In this document: positions 3,618-31,179 of the stretch, one piece after another
Numbering within the stretch: position 1 is the stretch's first letter
Layout of the letters: each line of letters begins with the position of its first letter
Source: a phage
Reading direction: 5' to 3' (one strand)
Length of the DNA: 64,000 nt
Sequence record: PZ445451.1
Program-made: the position numbers and the translations under genes
The notes under the pieces: model-generated
The model's input: the letters and a program-made list of their open reading frames with translations, nothing else
Told to the model about the DNA's origin: nothing
The model's database searches: none

Positions 3618-6392
3618 TTAGTTTATCAGTTTATTTATGTCTGGTAAAAGATTTATTTCACCTAAGAAATCACCTTCACCTTCCTCTAGCCAACTCTCAT
3701 ATGCTTGTGCATGATTATAGTTACCATCAAAAGAATCTGCAACAAATTTTTCTACAGTTTTTCGAGATGTGCCAGCGCCAAATACACCAAGTTTAATACT
3801 ATTGATCGGTAAAGTGGTGCTTGTTGGTACTTTCTCTGTTGCAACACGGTTGATATCTATAATCTCCTGTACGGTTGTGTTCCATTGTAAGCATTTAACA
3901 CAACGGGTATGCGCTACATACAGTAGGTTTCGCTCTGCCTCTTCCAGTCCTACCCATTCACCAGTTTTTTTATCATAATTGGAAGGAAAATCATTAGCAA
4001 CAATAACCTGATCCCACTCCAAACCTTTAGACTTGTGTGCTGTAGTCAATGTGACTTTTGCTGTAGGAGAATTTCTATGCGTTCTAAGTGTATGTGCTAT
4101 AGTGTTTGCCTTGCCAGAAACTACGATGTTTAACAAGCGTTTAGCATCTGGATCAGCCTCTGCACACTCAACAAATTCATTCCAGTCTGCGTAAGGTAAT
4201 ACAGTTTCATGTTTTACTTTCTCAATATCTCCTCTCCGAAGAGCATTAACACTATCTACCATAGAGATAAAATCCCTGGTATCTACGTTAATAATAATTT
4301 CTTCCCCATCTGCAATACGATCCATTGCCTCCATAAGCAAGGTTAAATTCTTGCGAAAGATGATAGTGTAAGGTTTTGTATAGTCTACAACATCTGATTT
4401 GTAGCTACCTACTACAGTATCAAAGCCTTTACCAACCAAAGGATGACGCAAAGGTTCTTTATCGCTTAAAATCATATTGGCAATGTTTGCCACTTTGGGG
4501 CCAAAACGGAAGCAAGCAGTTAATGGAAGCTCTGCCCCATACTTAGCTGTTTCAATCATCATATTAGAGCTACCTCTAAATTGATAAATGCAGTTGTGGC
4601 TAAGAATTTCATTGCCAAAGAAGTTAGCAGTATCCTCTACTTCAATATCATAATAGATACCCTCACTATCTACAATGTCCACAATCTCTTCTGCCGTTAC
4701 AGTATCACCATCTTTTACCAACACAGACATGCCTTTAAACAAACCCGCTGCCGGAATTAAGTTATATTTGGCACTGTTCACAGAGGACATGCATTCTTTT
4801 AAAGATGCAAACGGAACTATTTCAAGGATCTTTTGTGCAAAACTCAATGCTTCACGATAAGAATTGAAATATTTACGTACACGGTAACGACCTTCCAATT
4901 TAGCAGCACTTACGCTTACACCTGCTTTAATCAGTGAAGAATAGATCGGCATTTCACTTTCTGTCCACTCAAAACTAACTTGTGTTCCTTTACAACCTTG
5001 TGCTCGCAAAGTCACTGTTAGCATTTTTCTTTCATCTACTGCACAATTGATGCTGTGCCAGTGTGGATAAGCAAAATGATAATCTTTATCCTCTAAAAGT
5101 TTAAAACCATTTTGTCCGAATTGTTCAAAGATGTTATTGATCCTTTCTTGATTAATGCCGCGTGAACTTGCTTCAAATACACAAGTAGGAATGCCATATT
5201 GTAAACTGTATGCCATTTCTTTTTCCATAGCAGCTTCACGGTTTTCAACAATATCCAACACCCATAATTTCTGTGCTTTTTCAGAACGTGTACGTTGCCC
5301 CAGTTTAGAAAAACCTTCTTTATCATCGAATTTGTTAGTGATCCCTACTCGGAAACCTAAATCTTTCCTCCACATTAGGTATACCACCATCTGATCATCT
5401 TTCAGAACATAGGATGAAGCCCAAATACGATGGTTATGTGTCATATCTAAAGTTTTACCTGTGGCAGTAATAATATTCCTACCTTTTGTACGTGTAGATA
5501 AAGTCTTATTTGTTACTTTTCTAAATGTAATTTTACCATTAGAATAAGACTCTACCTTATCACCGATTTGTAGGTCTTTCATTGTAACCTGACCATTCTC
5601 GGTATTAAGTACCGTGTTTTCCGACACACATTGGAATTCATCGCCCACTACCACAATTTGTTTTGCAGATTTAGCATTTCGCAGAATAGACAAGAATGCA
5701 GGGTTAACATCCTGGAATTCATCACCAAAAATAATGTCATAACCAAGATCAGCACCTGATAACTCAAACAATTTTACATAGGTGTCATGCGTCATCAAAG
5801 TATCTGTGTTAGGATCAATGCGCTCTCGCCACAATTGTTTTGCATACTTAACTACTTCTGTAATTAGTTTGTGTTCGTTAATACCTTTTCTTTTAATATC
5901 TGCAAGATGTACACCAGGGAAATGTTTACGGCTGATAAAAGGATCATCCGAAAATTCAAACTTACCTACGGTTTGCTTGATCATTAAACCAATCATAGCA
6001 CGAGTTAAAAGTGTTTTCCCTCGTTTATCAATAAGATTATTAATCTTAAATTTCTTTGCTATCTCACTACCTGTACCTGCAACGTTAACATACTGTCCTT
6101 CTGGTCGTGACAGTTTTGCACGTAAACGATGATCCAGGAATTGATAGCAAATGGAATGCAATGTACGGCATTCTACATTTGGTGGCATCTTACGCCGTGC
6201 TTCTTCTGCCATGCTTTTATTGAAAGCTAAGTAAAGAATGCGATCTTCTGTACTGTTAGCCAGCAAATAAAGTGTTGACGTTTTGCCTGATCCAGATTTA
6301 GCTTGGATAGTTAAAAAACGATGGTCTGGAAAAGCCTCCTTAATAGCTGTTTGCTCTTCTGTTGGAGTAAAACTCAACTCTTTCTTAGCCAT
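3618..6392 (-). CDS. SF1 UvrD/PcrA-like DNA helicase, intein-containing precursor
   Basis: Track ORF; start moved to MAKKELSF (ATG 6392). Walker A AKSGSGKTSTL, motif II FGDEFQD, motif III GDEFQ|CIYQFRG split by an in-frame insert, C-terminal TTAHKSKGLEWDQVIV..LLYVAHTRCVK. Confidence 0.85.
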   Translation of the reverse strand: MAKKELSFTPTEEQTAIKEAFPDHRFLTIQAKSGSGKTSTLYLLANSTEDRILYLAFNKSMAEEARRKMPPNVECRTLHSICYQFLDHRLRAKLSRPEGQYVNVAGTGSEIAKKFKINNLIDKRGKTLLTRAMIGLMIKQTVGKFEFSDDPFISRKHFPGVHLADIKRKGINEHKLITEVVKYAKQLWRERIDPNTDTLMTHDTYVKLFELSGADLGYDIIFGDEFQDVNPAFLSILRNAKSAKQIVVVGDEFQCVSENTVLNTENGQVTMKDLQIGDKVESYSNGKITFRKVTNKTLSTRTKGRNIITATGKTLDMTHNHRIWASSYVLKDDQMVVYLMWRKDLGFRVGITNKFDDKEGFSKLGQRTRSEKAQKLWVLDIVENREAAMEKEMAYSLQYGIPTCVFEASSRGINQERINNIFEQFGQNGFKLLEDKDYHFAYPHWHSINCAVDERKMLTVTLRAQGCKGTQVSFEWTESEMPIYSSLIKAGVSVSAAKLEGRYRVRKYFNSYREALSFAQKILEIVPFASLKECMSSVNSAKYNLIPAAGLFKGMSVLVKDGDTVTAEEIVDIVDSEGIYYDIEVEDTANFFGNEILSHNCIYQFRGSSNMMIETAKYGAELPLTACFRFGPKVANIANMILSDKEPLRHPLVGKGFDTVVGSYKSDVVDYTKPYTIIFRKNLTLLMEAMDRIADGEEIIINVDTRDFISMVDSVNALRRGDIEKVKHETVLPYADWNEFVECAEADPDAKRLLNIVVSGKANTIAHTLRTHRNSPTAKVTLTTAHKSKGLEWDQVIVANDFPSNYDKKTGEWVGLEEAERNLLYVAHTRCVKCLQWNTTVQEIIDINRVATEKVPTSTTLPINSIKLGVFGAGTSRKTVEKFVADSFDGNYNHAQAYESWLEEGEGDFLGEINLLPDINKLIN
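4593..5630 (-). mobile_element. Intein (346 aa) inserted in helicase motif III
   Basis: Insert begins CVSENTVLNTENG (block A), has TxxH-like MTHNHRI (block B) and ends ..YYDIEVEDTANFFGNEILSHN followed by extein Cys. Removing it restores GDEFQCIYQFRG. Coordinates derived from track residue numbering (residues 268-613). Confidence 0.75.
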
Positions 6393-6393
6393 T

Positions 6394-6870
6394 TCAACCT
6401 CTCTTAATTTGTTTAACAAGCATAGGAACAAAATCTCGTTTTAAAATTTGTTCAATAATGTGATCAGGTAGCTGTTGGAAATTATAATTAAAAGCTACTG
6501 TCTCACCTTTAGGTGTTTCTACCCGCACATATAACATGTTACGAAGTTTATCCACTTGTGCTGTATATTCTAAACCACGTAATTGATGCATTGCAAACAT
6601 CAAATCATCAGGTTCAGTTTGGAATCTATCACTTGTCTGCATCAAGGATAAGGTAAAAGGTAGATTTTCCCTAAGAGCTACCTTCTTAGGCACTAATGAA
6701 GGGAAATACTCCCCAATAACTTCCTGTGTAAGCTGAATACACTCTTTTTCAAGCTGGTTTTGTTCCTTGAGTTCACAAACACTTTTTTGTAAAGTGTTAA
6801 CCTCTTTTTGCAAGGCTGCTAGTTGAGCATTTAACTTTCTTTTTTGATTACGACCAAAACGTTTAGACAT
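6394..6870 (-). CDS. Hypothetical protein (158 aa), coiled-coil N-terminus
   Basis: Track ORF; stop abuts helicase start. Confidence 0.55.
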   Translation of the reverse strand: MSKRFGRNQKRKLNAQLAALQKEVNTLQKSVCELKEQNQLEKECIQLTQEVIGEYFPSLVPKKVALRENLPFTLSLMQTSDRFQTEPDDLMFAMHQLRGLEYTAQVDKLRNMLYVRVETPKGETVAFNYNFQQLPDHIIEQILKRDFVPMLVKQIKRG

Positions 6871-15934: not shown

Positions 15935-17338
15935 ATGACAGCACCAAAATCATGGGAACAATATAAAGAAGAATTAACACCCCTTGCTAAAAATCACAAT
16001 ATTCAAATCCTGGGTTATGTTGGGGAATGGAAAGGGAGCAAGACTAAACTTAAACTATCTTGCCCTGATCATGGAGAGTGGGAAAGTACCACAATCGCTA
16101 AATTTAAAACTAAAGGCAGTAAATGTTGCCCCGATTGCAATGGTCGTAGAAAAGTAACAGAAGAAAAGGAATGTATTTCCCTTGTTGATATTGCTAAAGA
16201 AAGAGGGTTTACTTTTATAGGTCTTGCCGAGGAGTGGCGAGGTGTGCGAACAAAAATTCGCATAGTTTGCCCTAAACATGGAGAGTGGAACACCACGCAC
16301 ATTATTGATTTTAGGAATGGACGTGGTTGTCCTATCTGTTCTGGTAAGAAGCCGTTAACATGGGAAACAGAATTACCGATCTTGGCAGAGATAGCACAGA
16401 AGAAGGGGTATCAGGTGTTAGGGTACGTTGGAAAATGGAAAGGGTGTTACACAAAACTTGATTTGTTGTGTCATTGTGGGAACAGATGGGATACTACAAG
16501 TATTAACAGTTTTAAAAATGGCAATGGTTGTCCTTTATGTAGGAGGGAGAATATAAGGAAGGCAAAAACAATATCCGACGATCAACATATTGCAGATTTC
16601 TTTTCTACAGGGAAATTTAAGGAAGGCACTATCTTCACCAATACAGGGAAACGTAGTTGTAGTAAATCAGGAGATATTATCTGGATGATCGAGTGTCCTG
16701 TTTGCTCCCATGATGAATATGTTCAAGCAGGTGTTTGCGATGGTAAATTTTACTCTAGAGGAAGTGATCTTAAACAAGGAAGTATCCCTTGCCGCTGTGC
16801 AACTAGCTATCATTATACAGAAAATCAGATTACCTACAAAGTGAGAAAGGAAATAGAAAAGAAAGGGTATGTCTGGGTAGATTGGATTACCAAACCATCT
16901 TCTATAGGTAAGTTTAAATATCTTTGTCTTGTACATGGGGAGCAGATAGGGAGTGCTCGTAACTTATTAACTCAAGGGTGTGGGTGTTCACAGTGTGCTG
17001 GTCATAGTCAACAGCAATTATATATTAATATTGTTAAAGATAATGATATTACAGTTGCTCTTAAGTTTGGCATAGCTAAAGATAGTGACAGGCGATTAAA
17101 CAGTCAAAATAGCCGTAATCTGTTTTTTATGGAGCGTATTTGTTTATATGATTTTAGTACAGTGAAACAGTGTAAGGCTGCTGAAAGAGCTATAAAGAAA
17201 AAATTAAAAACTGGTATCTTAACAGCAAGAGAGTTGAAAGATGGTTATACAGAAACAGTAAGTGTTTCTGATTTGGAAAATCTTCAAAAAATTATTACAC
17301 AATATGGTGGCAAATTAGTATACAGTAAGGAGATGTAA
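15935..17338 (+). CDS. Multi-zinc-ribbon repeat protein with C-terminal GIY-YIG/T5orf172-like putative nuclease domain
   Basis: Track ORF; about 6 tandem repeats of CP.HGEW.TT.I..F..G.GCP.C.G; C-terminus ..LYINIVKDNDITVALKFGIAKDSDRRLNSQN..FMERI..AERAIKKKL..GYTETVSVS resembles the GIY-YIG-like T5orf172 fold (inference). Confidence 0.6.
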   Translation: MTAPKSWEQYKEELTPLAKNHNIQILGYVGEWKGSKTKLKLSCPDHGEWESTTIAKFKTKGSKCCPDCNGRRKVTEEKECISLVDIAKERGFTFIGLAEEWRGVRTKIRIVCPKHGEWNTTHIIDFRNGRGCPICSGKKPLTWETELPILAEIAQKKGYQVLGYVGKWKGCYTKLDLLCHCGNRWDTTSINSFKNGNGCPLCRRENIRKAKTISDDQHIADFFSTGKFKEGTIFTNTGKRSCSKSGDIIWMIECPVCSHDEYVQAGVCDGKFYSRGSDLKQGSIPCRCATSYHYTENQITYKVRKEIEKKGYVWVDWITKPSSIGKFKYLCLVHGEQIGSARNLLTQGCGCSQCAGHSQQQLYINIVKDNDITVALKFGIAKDSDRRLNSQNSRNLFFMERICLYDFSTVKQCKAAERAIKKKLKTGILTARELKDGYTETVSVSDLENLQKIITQYGGKLVYSKEM

Positions 17339-17890
17339 ATGCGGATTACTGATAAGTATGTGTTCTTCTTTTCAGCAAAAGATGAATTTAGCAACTGGTA
17401 TCTATCATCTTTTATTGAACCTTTAGCACCCAAGTATAATAATTCTATTACAAGTTCTGTTGAATTTACTTGTGTGGAACAATATATGATGTGGAGAAAA
17501 GCATGTTTGTTTTATGATTACAGTATTGCATCTTCTATTTTAACCGGAGATCTAAGATATACAGGAGAAAAAGAACAAGCATATTATAAGCGACTAGGCA
17601 GATTAGTTAAAGATTATGATGAAGATACCTGGACTTCTTTACGGGAGAAGATTGTCAAACGTGGTTTGTATCTTAAATACACACAAAATGAAGATCTCAA
17701 AAATAAACTTATAGCCTACGCAGATAAGGAGTTCGTAGAGGCAAGCCCCTATGATTCTATTTATGGTATCAAAATGGGGATGTGGGATCGTGATGTGGAA
17801 AATAAGGACTGTTGGAAAGGACAAAATCTTTTAGGAAAATGGCATACAGACCTTGCTGTTTATCTAAAAACACAATCTGATATTTCCTGA
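17339..17890 (+). CDS. NADAR (YbiA/DUF1768) family protein
   Basis: Track ORF; FFFSAKDEFSNW..EQYMMWRKA..W..REKIVKRGLYLKYTQNEDLKNKL..EFVEASPYDSIYGIK..CWKGQNLLGK matches NADAR signature. Confidence 0.8.
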   Translation: MRITDKYVFFFSAKDEFSNWYLSSFIEPLAPKYNNSITSSVEFTCVEQYMMWRKACLFYDYSIASSILTGDLRYTGEKEQAYYKRLGRLVKDYDEDTWTSLREKIVKRGLYLKYTQNEDLKNKLIAYADKEFVEASPYDSIYGIKMGMWDRDVENKDCWKGQNLLGKWHTDLAVYLKTQSDIS

Positions 17891-18101
17891 TATTTTGAAA
17901 ATTTTTATTTTTATAAAAAGGGGTGTGGGTTTCATGTACGGAAATTCACCCTCTGCACAGTATATCCAGAGTAAGTAGTATTCTACACCCTGTTAATAAA
18001 GTATTTAATTTGTTTGTTGGACTATGGTATCTGATCTTTAAAAGGCATACTATCTCTTAACTACTACTTATAACAAAACAGTAAAATCATTTTTATAAAA
18101 A

Positions 18102-18307
18102 GGACAAAATTATTTAAAGTTTTTACAGATTTTTGGATACAAATTTTGAAAATGAAAAGTTCAAGTTTGGTCAAAATTATTTAAAGTTTTTGTACGTATT
18201 TCTATCCAGATTTTGAAAATGAAAACTTCAATTTTTTAAAAATTCCCCAGTTTATTTAAAGTTTTTTTGCCTTTTTCCGTAGAAAAATCAAAAATGAAAA
18301 GTTCAAT
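18102..18307. repeat. Three tandem ~65-70 bp direct repeats (TATTTAAAGTTTTT ... TTTTGAAAATGAAAAGTTCAA)
   Basis: Seen directly: copies start near 18109, 18176 and 18249, in a convergent intergenic region. Confidence 0.7.
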
Positions 18308-18330
18308 TTCGTGTTTTTATAGGTGTGCGT

Positions 18331-18442
18331 ATGATAATCATTCTCATTTGTAAATGAGAATCATTATCATTTAATTATGTAAGTGATAATCATTCTCAGT
18401 AAGAGAATGAGAATCATTAGCAAATGAGAATTTTTCTCATTT
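18331..18442. promoter_or_regulatory. Array of 5 alternately oriented Fur-box-like palindromic motifs (TGATAATCATTCTCATT / AATGAGAATCATTATC)
   Basis: Seen directly; motif shares GATAATCATT core with the Fur box consensus GATAATGATAATCATTATC. Confidence 0.55.
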
Positions 18443-18703
18443 AGAGAATAACGCGCAGGGGCGGTGTTTGTCTCGCGCTCCCGTGTCCCCTCGCCATACA
18501 ATAAGAATAGCATAACCAACAACAAAAGCAAGCGATTATTTTTATCTTTACATTTCTTTACAAATTTATTTTAGACGAGCTACCGGCGATCAACCTTCCA
18601 ACCAGTGCCCCCTGGTATGTTAGCCCCGCCTTTACGCCGTGGGGGTGGCGTTTCCTCTTCTGTATGTAAAACAGTATAAGCCCGATCCCTGGGCTTGTCA
18701 AGA

Positions 18704-18970
18704 TTATTTTTTGTTTTCTTGCCAGGAAAGGACACCTAACCAAAAATACATATCGCCCCGCGCCCCTGGCGGGATCTTGCTTTCCCCGCCGCCACTGCAA
18801 GCCCATAAATAACCATCAGCGAACGGATCAAAATGTTCTATCTCTTCCACCTTATGATCGCCCAGGTTGAGAACGGTTTCAATCTTTAAGCCCGTTGCGC
18901 TTGCTACCTGGTGCACCGTGCCGCCTTGCCAGCCCAATGAGTGCATGAGATGTAAAGGAGTATTTGTCAT
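18704..18970 (-). CDS. Hypothetical protein (88 aa) in a GC-rich segment
   Basis: Track ORF with AAAGGAG SD; local GC content clearly higher than the rest of the window. Confidence 0.45.
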   Translation of the reverse strand: MTNTPLHLMHSLGWQGGTVHQVASATGLKIETVLNLGDHKVEEIEHFDPFADGYLWACSGGGESKIPPGARGDMYFWLGVLSWQENKK

Positions 18971-28861: not shown

Positions 28862-28876
28862 ATAACATTTCACACC

Positions 28877-28903
28877 AGGGCGCACAAAGCGCCCTTTCTT
28901 TTT
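28877..28903 (+). terminator. Rho-independent terminator (AGGGCGC-ACAAA-GCGCCCT-TTCTTTTT)
   Basis: Seen directly; ends the small-gene array. Confidence 0.7.
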
Positions 28904-29106
28904 ACCTAAATAAAGATGATAGCTTTTACCTATCAAAAACGTTCACCGAAAAAAGTGAATAGATCGCGGTATCGAGCTAATCAAGGAGCAGATGAACAAC
29001 CATACCATGAAGATCATAAGGCGCTTACAACGTGTTTTAGACCGCTTATTTTTAATTTCTCAATGTAACTATCGGGCAAAAACAGCCTTTTTCTTGTCTT
29101 TCCTCT

Positions 29107-29184
29107 TAAATGATAATCATTCTTATTTATAGCTGATTATTTATGCAATAAACTGCATAATGCAATAATGATAATCATTCTTAA
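29107..29184. promoter_or_regulatory. Two Fur-box-like sites (AAATGATAATCATTCTTA; ATAATGATAATCATTCTTA)
   Basis: Seen directly; second copy matches 16 of 18 positions of Fur consensus ATAATGATAATCATTATC. Confidence 0.55.
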
Positions 29185-29542
29185 CTTATGACCATCTAAC
29201 CTATAAAATAATAAGTTATCTAACTAAATTAAAACTAATTATCCCACCTTTATTTATAACTTACTTTTACTATCTCATTGATAACCTTATATTAAACAAC
29301 AATAACCAATATAAATCATTACTAAGCTAACTATAATCTATCTAACCCTTAAAACTATAACTATAATCTATCGAATTGTTGCACAAAGTAACTATTAAAT
29401 TGTTAGTAACTTTACTAAATAATTAATATCCTATCTATTTATGATCTAATCTTTACCTTACTATCTATTACCTAAATAACCATTTCATACAGAAATTATT
29501 TCATACAATAACTATAACAAGAAATATAATTCGCAAGCGTAT

Positions 29543-29703
29543 CATTAGCAGCCTATGCCGGACACATAGGCGGCTAATAATAACGCAACTACACACCCCA
29601 CATAATAACCATCACCGATAGTTATTATTTGTGCTTATGTAGCTTGCAACAATTGCAAGCGCAACAATATACATGGTATATTGTATCCCTTACATTGTTG
29701 CGG
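29543..29703. repeat. Cluster of nested inverted repeats (13-bp stem ATTAGCAGCCTATG/CATAGGCGGCTAAT; CTTGCAACAATTGCAAG; CGCAACAAT...ATTGTTGCG enclosing ATATAC-ATG-GTATAT)
   Basis: Seen directly in the 1.8-kb non-coding region. Confidence 0.6.
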
Positions 29704-30042
29704 TGCGTTATTATTAGCTAATGTTTGGAACATTGGCTATAATATAAGCTACATATAATAAGCTATACAATAATAAACATAATGAATAATGACACTGATG
29801 ATCATAATGCGCCACCTTCCAGGGGGCGCTATGTGAACACAAAGAAATCTTTCTTGTCAAGAAAAATATCACCATTATTGCGCAAAATTATTTATATCTG
29901 AACAGATGATTTTTCATACTATTGCCCCCTATAGTATCCCTATTTGTTGTAATGTATTCCCCTATTTGTTGAGCCTACTCTCTTAAAAGCGCAATAAATT
30001 AGAATTATCTTGATTTTTAGGTAGTTTTATAGTATAGAAAAT

Positions 30043-30066
30043 ATGCAAATGATAATCATTATCAGC
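30043..30066. promoter_or_regulatory. Fur-box-like site (GCAAATGATAATCATTATC)
   Basis: Seen directly; AATGATAATCATTATC is a 16/16 match to the 3' part of the Fur consensus. Confidence 0.6.
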
Positions 30067-30229
30067 TATCTTCCACAGGTGGCACTATTTCACGCCAGAT
30101 CATTTCATTTGGCAAGGTGTATATAGATGTTTAGAAATGCCAAGCCATTGATTTACTTAGAATTTATCTGTTTTGTTGTGAGTAGTGCCTTTCTTGCTCA
30201 GAAAATAATCAAAAGTCTTATAAGTCATT

Positions 30230-30264
30230 GAATGATAATGCAAATGATAATTATTCTCATTGAT
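30230..30264. promoter_or_regulatory. Fur-box-like site (GAATGATAATGCAAATGATAATTATTCTCATT)
   Basis: Seen directly. Confidence 0.5.
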
Positions 30265-30378
30265 ATTTGAGGGGGACGGTCGGCAGAAATCGGGGGCGCT
30301 AAAAATCGCGTTAAGCACCTCTCGCAAGCGAGCAGTATTTTGCGGCAAGTTATTGATATTATTGGCTTTACGCTTATG

Positions 30379-30485
30379 GAAAGGGGGTGTGTCGAAATAA
30401 ATCGGGTATACCGGAAAATTTTTGTGGCATAGATATTTATTTGTCTATATTATGTACAAAGGGGTGTGTTAAAAATAATAGGTAT
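30379..30485. repeat. Two copies of AAAGGGGTGTGT..AAATAA..GGTATA motif about 73 bp apart
   Basis: Seen directly; third partial copy at ~17919. Confidence 0.45.
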
Positions 30486-30717
30486 ATATAGAATAATTGA
30501 TAGGGAAATCCTATACTAATCCCTCCATTAATGATGTTCCTAGGTTGCTGTTCTTGTAACAGATGAAAAGACGCTGTATGATGTGTGGCATGAGACGTAA
30601 ATTTATAAGATGCAAATAATGCTTGCATTGAATAGAAATGTCTGTATAGTGGTTTGCATACCGCGCACGACGCGTTTCCATTTTCAATAAAATGTTAGCA
30701 TTATGGGGAGGTAGAAA

Positions 30718-31179
30718 ATGAGACAACTATCTATACTGGAAGCACATGTGCAATGTGTTGCAGATTATGTCAAAGAACACTCAAGTTTGTTGGATGTAAC
30801 CTGTGCAGTGCAAAATGATGTAGGTATTGTCTGTGTGCGACATATCTTATCTGAAACTCGTTATGAAGTATTTCGTGCCAAGTTGTTTGGATGTGATCAA
30901 GTGCATGTAAACTTCTTGGATTCCAATTTTCGTTATGCTTTAGAAAATATTGATGATTATCTTCCTTGCTCTCCGACCGGATATGTGATGATAGCAGCAA
31001 ATGAAGTAACACCAAACAACAGTGAGCGGGAAACTTTGTTACGGAAGAAAATACGCCAACTGCAAGTGTTGAATGAACTGAAAGAAGAGATTGAAAAAGA
31101 ACTGAAAGAAGATTTTGGTATGCTTCCAAAAGACGCTTTGAAATGGTTTGATGAACTAGGAGAGGAAAGTTATGAATAA
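30718..31179 (+). CDS. Hypothetical protein (153 aa); N-terminus paralogous to 36932 gene
   Basis: Track ORF; GGGGAGG SD; shares ..H.SLL.V...V....G.V.V.H.LS.T.Y.VF....... with 36932..37183. Confidence 0.55.
   Translation: MRQLSILEAHVQCVADYVKEHSSLLDVTCAVQNDVGIVCVRHILSETRYEVFRAKLFGCDQVHVNFLDSNFRYALENIDDYLPCSPTGYVMIAANEVTPNNSERETLLRKKIRQLQVLNELKEEIEKELKEDFGMLPKDALKWFDELGEESYE

Follow-up and report, generated by a model that had tools for sequence, protein, structure and literature searches.

Fur-box-like palindromes beside a conserved RNA-like element in the strictly lytic coliphage PaulScherrer, with counterparts at terminal repeats and in other phages

A palindrome array in a non-coding gap of phage PaulScherrer

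The stretch of DNA analyzed here (64,000 nt; hereafter, the window) is 100% identical to Escherichia phage PaulScherrer (Bas60, MZ501100.1), a phi92-like, strictly lytic myovirus of E. coli K-12 (Stephanstirmvirinae, Justusliebigvirus) that is available, with this host, as Bas60 of the public BASEL model collection. The locus of interest is a gap of ~800 nt between a NADAR/YbiA-like gene on the plus strand, which ends at 17890, and a small ORF on the minus strand (18704-18970), so that the convergent orientation of the flanking genes given in the first-pass annotation is upheld. Besides the palindrome array noticed in that annotation, the gap contains further conserved non-coding features. The array's neighbors are the NADAR protein, an HNH/CapR endonuclease, and small ORFs without an assigned role. 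The endonuclease gene (CapR/HNH-type with a T5orf172 domain; 15935-17338, plus strand) lies two genes upstream of the gap and possibly encodes a mobile homing endonuclease. Three direct repeats of ~67 nt each occupy 18102-18310 (plus strand), immediately upstream of the array; they are 69-82% identical to the reference copy, contain ATTTAAAGTTTTT and GAAAATGAAAAGTTCAA in each copy, and are annotated in phage alia merely as repeat_region. A search of the window for tRNA genes found none.

The array consists of five 15-bp palindromes of 7-1-7 form (TGAKAATnATTMTCA) at 18332-18439, three of them exact and two with one mismatch. Scored as overlapping 19-mers on a Fur matrix derived from E. coli promoters, box 1 (TGATAATCATTCTCA, 18332-18346, 0 mismatches) reaches 19.5 and 21.6 bits, box 2 (TGAGAATCATTATCA, 18355-18369, 0 mismatches) 24.0 and 19.0 bits, box 3 (TGATAATCATTCTCA again, 18384-18398, 0 mismatches) 18.8 and 15.0 bits, box 4 (TGAGAATCATTAGCA, 18408-18422, 1 mismatch) 18.2 and 15.8 bits, and the promoter-proximal box 5 (TGAGAATTTTTCTCA, 18425-18439, 1 mismatch) 20.1 and 19.4 bits. 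Five alternately oriented motifs had been described at 18331-18442, and five palindromes with their halves in the order A-B-A-B are indeed what is found there: boxes 1-4 each have one TGATAAT and one TGAGAAT half, and box 5 has two G-type halves. The alternating orientation arises because each palindrome pairs a TGATAAT half with a TGAGAAT half. Matches to TGAKAATNATTMTCA with at most two mismatches number 12 in the window against 2.1 expected, a count reached in 0 of 100 shuffles, and the textbook 19-mer GATAATGATAATCATTATC with at most three mismatches is matched six times against 0.03 expected. All five array sites have the 7-1-7 inverted-repeat architecture of Fur sites (TGATAATnATTATCA) with 0-1 mismatch each.

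The 19-bp Fur matrix was refined solely from 13 Fur-regulated intergenic regions of E. coli K-12 (fepA-fes, fepD-entS, fepB-entC, fhuA, cirA, ryhB, fecI, fecA, tonB, exbB, fhuF, fiu, and fhuE), and its consensus is GCAAATGATAATCATTATC. Scoring of this kind had been asked for in advance, and it sustains the proposed resemblance to Fur boxes: the array boxes, at 18-24 bits, match or exceed the genuine E. coli sites, which score 16-24.5 bits in-sample and 10.7-22.7 bits when left out one at a time. Across the window, 18 positions score at least 15 bits where 2.5 are expected per 64 kb under a first-order Markov model; 11 of the 18 fall within 18327-18444, and the top score over 200 random sequences was 22.7 bits. 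Judged by sequence, the array boxes rank as top-grade Fur sites, down to the GCAAATGA flank that is common to many host sites.

Multi-box Fur operators of E. coli (fepA-fes, fhuF, ryhB, and cirA, as well as iucA of the aerobactin system) offer the closest comparison. They share with the phage array the 19-bp consensus and the 7-1-7 inverted repeat, the GCAAATGA flank and the GAGAAT variant, perhaps a box placed over a -35/-10 region (that of a putative promoter in the phage), and adjacent boxes at which extended cooperative binding is possible. The phage array differs from them in lying in non-coding DNA of a strictly lytic phage with no iron gene downstream, in having, instead of contiguous hexamers, five separate palindromes at intervals of 17-29 nt, and in being accompanied by additional predicted boxes in the terminal repeat.

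A conserved block with an RNA-like element between facing putative promoters

A sensitive search with the gap sequence matched 253 phage records. Eight phages from two subfamilies, Stephanstirmvirinae and Vequintavirinae, have boxes at this position, and the hosts of the box-bearing relatives span Escherichia, Klebsiella, Cronobacter, Salmonella, and Erwinia. Comparison of representatives (Phapecoctavirus, an unclassified Klebsiella stephanstirmvirus, Seunavirus, Certrevirus, Mydovirus, and Henunavirus) revealed that the box number in the conserved array varies from one to five, with one box in Hena1, two each in 4MG, KpS8, and SalP219, and four each in CR3, Schickermooser, and phi1_175008, and that the spacing is often exactly 29 nt. 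The box sequences diverge among relatives while the palindrome is preserved. Only the right-hand box, box 5, is found in every box-bearing relative; in the alignment it corresponds to the last, or sole, box of 4MG, CR3, KpS8, Hena1, SalP219, Schickermooser, and phi1_175008. This last box runs without a break into a ~250-nt non-coding block that is conserved (18423-18700 of the window), part of which is 82-88% identical across phage genera with indels of 1, 4, and 8 nt, and because of these indel lengths the block is not coding. Some Vequintavirinae records begin near the array; these were checked as possible physical ends, and no terminus is annotated there.

Two putative promoters face each other across the block. 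The rightward one, P(+) (18420-18449, plus strand), has a -35-like hexamer at 18420-18425 (GCAAAT here, TTGAAT in most relatives), an 18-nt spacer that holds box 5, and a -10-like hexamer at 18444-18449 (GAGAAT here, xAGAAT in the comparison); its GAAT and the downstream GCA are invariant in the alignment, and transcription would start near an invariant CA at 18456-18457. The placement of box 5 between these hexamers is possibly the classic layout of a Fur-repressed promoter, reading rightward. In a scan for consensus promoters P(+) was not among the matches, and weak 9/12 matches inside the array were returned at 18341-18370 (plus) and 18360-18331 (minus). The Mydovirus, L028, and L032 types have a base other than A at position -11 of P(+) (CTGAAT or CGGAAT), and P(+) may not be a promoter in all lineages. 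The leftward promoter, P(-) (18673-18701, minus strand; TTGACA-17-TATACT, 11/12 consensus match), faces the array, and its -35 and -10 hexamers are retained in all homologues examined, including four (L041, L042, L044, and L039) that have neither boxes nor P(+). P(-) probably drives the RNA-like element described below on the minus strand. The first-pass annotation had reasoned that an array between convergent genes is unlikely to be an ordinary promoter operator; that argument fails here, because box 5 lies between a -35-like and a -10-like hexamer at the head of the conserved block and is faced by a consensus promoter.

Two metagenomic homologues without Fur boxes retain CTGAAT together with the GACGCGCAGGGG / GACGCGCAGG segment and have a different repeated motif in place of the boxes. 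This suggests that the operator has been swapped, and that the same putative promoter may be gated by a different factor in other hosts. In the box-less contigs L032 and L049, the motif GTGATAGTT / GTTACTA lies ~60-200 nt upstream of a conserved CTGAATGAC segment.

Within the block, the RNA-like element at 18580-18654 combines an invariant single-stranded CTACCGGCGATnnACCTT with two hairpins, P2 (18599-18619) and P3 (18635-18650), and a pseudoknot in which GCCCC at 18623-18627 pairs with the P3 loop. We scanned IMG/VR with CTACCGGCGATNNACCTT and kept matches with conserved flanks; once these were added, 19 distinct versions of the element could be compared. Among these, P2 has compensatory changes from C-G to G-C and from A-T to G-C, P3 has changed from CGCC/GGCG to GAC/GTC in one lineage, and the pseudoknot covaries as GCCCC/GGGGT, GCCAG/CTGGT, GCCAA/TTGGT, and GCCAT/ATGGT. 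Single-sequence folding of the element is no better than that of shuffled sequences on either strand (z 0.3-0.7), and for this reason the case for an RNA structure is made by covariation alone; RNAalifold on MAFFT alignments was uninformative, with the variable hairpin misaligned. Searches with Rfam 15 gave no match at gathering thresholds in the array gap and none up to E = 10 within 18450-18700, the sub-threshold matches being confined to the palindromic array and to other parts of the scanned stretch, and no counterpart of the element was found in 5,426 E. coli genomes. The element is a candidate new phage small-RNA family of Stephanstirmvirinae, Vequintavirinae, and several uncultured phages.

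The cues for its strand conflict, with one wobble pair favoring the plus strand and two the minus strand, and the stem energies are likewise divided. A leftward (minus-strand) small RNA is the more likely reading because the minus-strand promoter is universal among homologues. A conserved GC-rich hairpin region at 18453-18495, with CGGTG.TT invariant in its loop in the alignment, folds at -16 kcal/mol on either strand (z ~0); it would form the 5' end of a plus-strand transcript or the 3' hairpin of a minus-strand one. Convergent-promoter antisense switches are familiar from ColE1 RNA I/RNA II, P22 sar, and lambda OOP. The phage locus likewise has facing promoters, here ~250 nt apart across a structured RNA-like element, and differs in that one promoter would be gated by a host metal sensor, both transcripts being predicted.

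Boxes at the terminal repeat and in other phages

Four further boxes start at 29111, 29169, 30050, and 30245 in a second, ORF-free gap of 1.85 kb (28862-30717). The first two (29111-29125 and 29169-29183, feature 29111-29183; 1 mismatch each, 17.8-18.6 bits) lie upstream of a segment equivalent to a direct terminal repeat (DTR) and are also found in Salmonella phage UAB_1, a close relative whose annotated 343-bp direct terminal repeats align with 29972-30313 of the window (plus strand) at 97% identity. A 342-bp DTR was determined with PhageTerm for BME3, a phage of the same genus (PMC12210895). The two strongest boxes lie inside the repeat, at its positions 74 and 269, because the UAB_1 DTR maps to 29972-30313: the box at 30045-30063 scores 26.4 bits and is 19/19 identical to the consensus GCAAATGATAATCATTATC of the E. 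coli-derived matrix, and that at 30240-30258 (GCAAATGATAATTATTCTC) scores 25.0 bits on the same matrix. As predicted from this alignment, both boxes would occur at both ends of the virion DNA. The PaulScherrer record does not start and stop at the physical genome ends, the left one of which probably falls near 29972 of the window. In the distant Phapecoctavirus Mt1B1_P17, boxes lie at 54 and 233 of the record start with a third at 981, and this arrangement of boxes at the record start has outlived the surrounding sequence. A sigma-70 scan around the terminal-repeat boxes gave no more matches than shuffles and no convincing promoter.

Other repeats occur in the same region. The stretch 29200-29970, directly before the terminal-repeat-equivalent segment, is ORF-free with ~30% GC and has many short direct and inverted repeats, among them a perfect 15-nt inverted repeat (29573-29587 / 29704-29718). 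A motif, AAGGGGGTGTG, recurs at 30269-30293, 30381-30405, and 30458-30482, that is, just inside and after the terminal-repeat-equivalent segment, and again directly after the NADAR gene (17919-17930).

The same palindrome is found in T5-like phages, in arrays of 29-nt units that the Fur matrix scores at 17-24 bits and of which each genome has two copies. These arrays occupy the large non-coding part of the terminal repeat, between paired DnaA boxes and nine DRD repeats. Examples of Fur-grade box arrays in 29-nt units are those of vB_Sen_H9 (L003:2455-2665) and EC100 (L004:2495-2690), and one 25-mer, GCAAATGATAATGATTCGCATTTAA, is identical in a Phapecoctavirus and a T5-like phage. Repeat Region 3 of T5 has been described as palindromes and "DRC" repeats beside the injection stop signal, with no function assigned (10.1101/866236), and these DRC/palindrome repeats are, to judge by their position, presumably the Fur-like array. 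They were not interpreted as Fur boxes in that preprint, by Davison (10.1101/866236). In contrast to the PaulScherrer array, the T5 boxes are flanked by DnaA boxes and direct repeats, with no RNA-like element nearby.

When IMG/VR was scanned for pairs of boxes with 6-22 nt between them, 81 loci were obtained on unrelated contigs of very different sizes; their arrays have up to nine boxes with periods of 29-38 nt, and the contigs range from 21 to 63% GC. Tandem arrays of five to nine boxes lie, for instance, at L125:6650-6948, L109:272-475, L088:3487-3743, L108:10736-10960, and L082:2218-2354, the last of which is ~650 nt upstream of a terminase large subunit gene. In 11 of the 41 contigs that were covered in full, the array is at most 400 nt from a contig end, a suggestive proportion that is confounded by the tendency of assemblies to break at repeats.

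It is conceivable, if rather doubtful, that evenly spaced arrays of consensus Fur boxes form a widespread and unrecognised phage cis-element located at terminal repeats, genome ends, and small-RNA genes, by which lytic phages (phi92/rV5-like, T5-like, and uncultured) would sense or rewire the host iron regulator. If so, the palindromes beside the 50-year-old T5 injection stop signal would be Fur sites, and the motif in T5's terminal repeat would point to a specific protein as candidate for a region that has so far defied interpretation.

Host Fur sites on phage DNA are in themselves not new: the stx1 promoter has a Fur box on a prophage cargo gene. Fur boxes also precede sitABCD on temperate lambdoid coliphages (PMC6969025). 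Those are, however, single operators before iron-related cargo genes expressed in lysogens, whereas PaulScherrer has arrays, no cargo gene, and a lytic lifestyle; the element is familiar, and its carrier, arrangement, and location are unfamiliar. In the full-text literature, we found no report of Fur boxes in lytic coliphages, T5, or phi92-/rV5-like phages, an earlier mention elsewhere being possible, and a Fur-box array in a strictly lytic phage thus appears not to have been described previously. The finding comprises about nine consensus-grade boxes in non-coding DNA of a strictly lytic phage, conserved in two subfamilies and five host genera. If Fur binds them, such phages would either couple part of their program to host iron status or drain the Fur pool, and in either case phage infection would be tied to iron homeostasis in a new way.

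Candidate binding proteins and possible roles of the boxes

When E. coli Fur served as a tblastn query against 50,697 phage records, Stephanstirmvirinae, Vequintavirinae, and T5-like phages yielded no homologue, and Pfam and PHROG scans of eight neighboring proteins found no Fur-family or known DNA-binding domain. Because unrelated phages share the motif, a conserved host protein, here Fur, is indicated as the binder. With no phage Fur homologue found and the motif present in unrelated phage families, the suggestion that the boxes are operators for a phage repressor loses ground. Of the other roles offered in the first-pass annotation, an iron-sensing switch and a Fur decoy are both still candidates. 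A Keio collection screen of a V5-like phage, which may itself not carry the boxes, recovered LPS genes alone (PMC7229145), and Fur is not likely to be an essential host factor on rich medium; this outcome of the screen fits Fur as a dispensable repressor or as the target of a titration device and does not fit an essential architectural factor.

Our preferred reading, which we put forward tentatively as quite possible though short of probable, is that the array acts as an extended iron-responsive operator for host Fur at a small-RNA locus and that this control extends to the terminal-repeat boxes. In this proposal, the five palindromes would be high-affinity sites for the host ferric uptake regulator Fur that jointly form one extended operator, with box 5 (18425-18439) filling the spacer of a rightward sigma-70-like promoter (-35 at 18420-18425, -10 at 18444-18449) and boxes 1-4 upstream allowing cooperative Fur occupancy. 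The rightward promoter would fire into the conserved ~250-nt block with its pseudoknotted small-RNA-like element, which itself would most likely be transcribed leftward, starting from the consensus promoter at 18701-18673. As long as iron is plentiful, Fur-Fe2+ would keep the rightward promoter silent; under iron starvation, this promoter would become active and counteract the leftward RNA, either through antisense pairing or through transcriptional collision. The locus would thus work as a switch that responds to iron and balances convergent transcription, and through the boxes in and before the terminal repeat the same sensor may govern other early transcription or the genome ends. The Fur-site match, the positional conservation, the lack of a phage Fur homologue, and the covariation of the RNA-like element are observed; from them we infer Fur binding, the existence of both transcripts, and the direction of regulation. 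Class I ribonucleotide reductase uses an iron cofactor, and the phage encodes subunits of this enzyme class (NrdA/NrdB), so that host iron status is plausibly relevant to it.

Several observations count against the operator. The scan for consensus promoters missed P(+), the terminal-repeat boxes have no convincing sigma-70 promoter around them, the wobble pairs give conflicting cues to the strand of the RNA, and its single-sequence folding does not exceed that of shuffles. Other viral contigs have up to nine evenly spaced boxes, beyond what an operator needs, which points towards titration or architecture. The -10-like hexamer has no critical A at -11 in several clades. Finally, some homologues have the RNA-like element without any Fur box, and the RNA therefore does not need Fur.

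The titration to which the longer arrays point would take the form of a Fur sponge with no local target, in which the boxes of replicated genomes titrate the Fur pool and derepress host iron uptake and RyhB, thereby feeding iron-dependent enzymes of the phage such as NrdA/NrdB; we consider this main rival of the operator rather unlikely, yet worth weighing in some detail. Fur boxes on multicopy plasmids derepress the Fur regulon, as used in the Fur titration assay, and, if the sponge were true, these plasmids and the DnaA-binding datA locus of E. coli would be its counterparts as site clusters that act by copy number. We know of no phage example of a Fur titration locus. Each virion genome would have ~11 predicted high-affinity sites (5 + 2 + 2 in each terminal-repeat copy), and replication would bring the genome to hundreds of copies. 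Consistent with a sponge, the boxes form several separate non-coding clusters, and virion DNA would have the two best sites twice, since these fall in the terminal repeat; box number varies from one to five among relatives, as expected of a dosage trait, and unrelated viral contigs have tandem arrays of four to nine near-identical boxes with 29-38-nt periods. A pure sponge does not, however, require the invariant box fixed beside the conserved block, and titration would be of use only where host genes are still transcribed and translated late in infection. In T5-like phages, host DNA is degraded early (10.1101/866236), so a sponge would leave their arrays unexplained.

Less probable still, and in our judgment distinctly improbable, is that the sites bind a protein other than Fur, of phage or host origin, as iteron-like or centromere-like sequences for replication, genome-end handling, or injection control, their likeness to Fur boxes being convergent. 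The regular 29-nt spacing would suit such a role, as would the 21-bp palindrome AAATGAKAATnATTMTCATTT, which is more symmetric than most host Fur sites, and the motif is tied to terminal repeats in both phi92-like and T5-like phages, its T5 counterpart lying beside the injection stop region. A gene annotated as "putative DNA-binding protein" also starts at 30718, just past the terminal-repeat-equivalent segment. However, one box is 19/19 identical to the E. coli Fur consensus, including the GCAAAT flank typical of host sites, and the motif occurs in phage families that share few proteins and on contigs of 21-63% GC, which a conserved host factor fits better; moreover, the array has no initiator gene beside it, and DnaA boxes are as frequent as chance would make them.

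Very improbable, finally, is a role of Fur as a roadblock or architectural protein independent of iron sensing, which would halt the leftward RNA ahead of the NADAR and endonuclease genes, to which it would otherwise become antisense, and could insulate or organise genome ends. The array begins directly past the hairpin at the 3' side of the leftward unit, a hairpin without a clean U-tract, and the box-less homologues L042 and L044 have a proper bidirectional terminator at that place; boxes also lie at most 300 bp from the genome end. Yet Fur occupancy would still depend on iron, making such a roadblock hard to tell from the switch, and a minus-strand RNA is required, for which the wobble pairs conflict. 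To our knowledge, no Fur roadblock terminator has been described.

Proposals that the array is an origin or a packaging site find no support: the window has 11 DnaA boxes against 11.5 expected, with none in the array gap, and the UAB_1 terminal repeat aligns ~11.5 kb away, at 29972-30313. An iteron-type origin was rejected, the array sites being palindromes rather than same-orientation repeats with no initiator gene adjacent, and so was the array as genome terminus, although the separate boxes at 30045 and 30240 do fall inside the repeat. Elsewhere in the window, an ORF for a UvrD-like helicase (3618-6431, minus strand) is split by an intein (Hint / Intein_splicing domains), and a Fur-like site at 5072-5090 (18.9 bits) that touches a DnaA-box match at 5062-5070 lies inside the intein-coding part and is probably there by chance.
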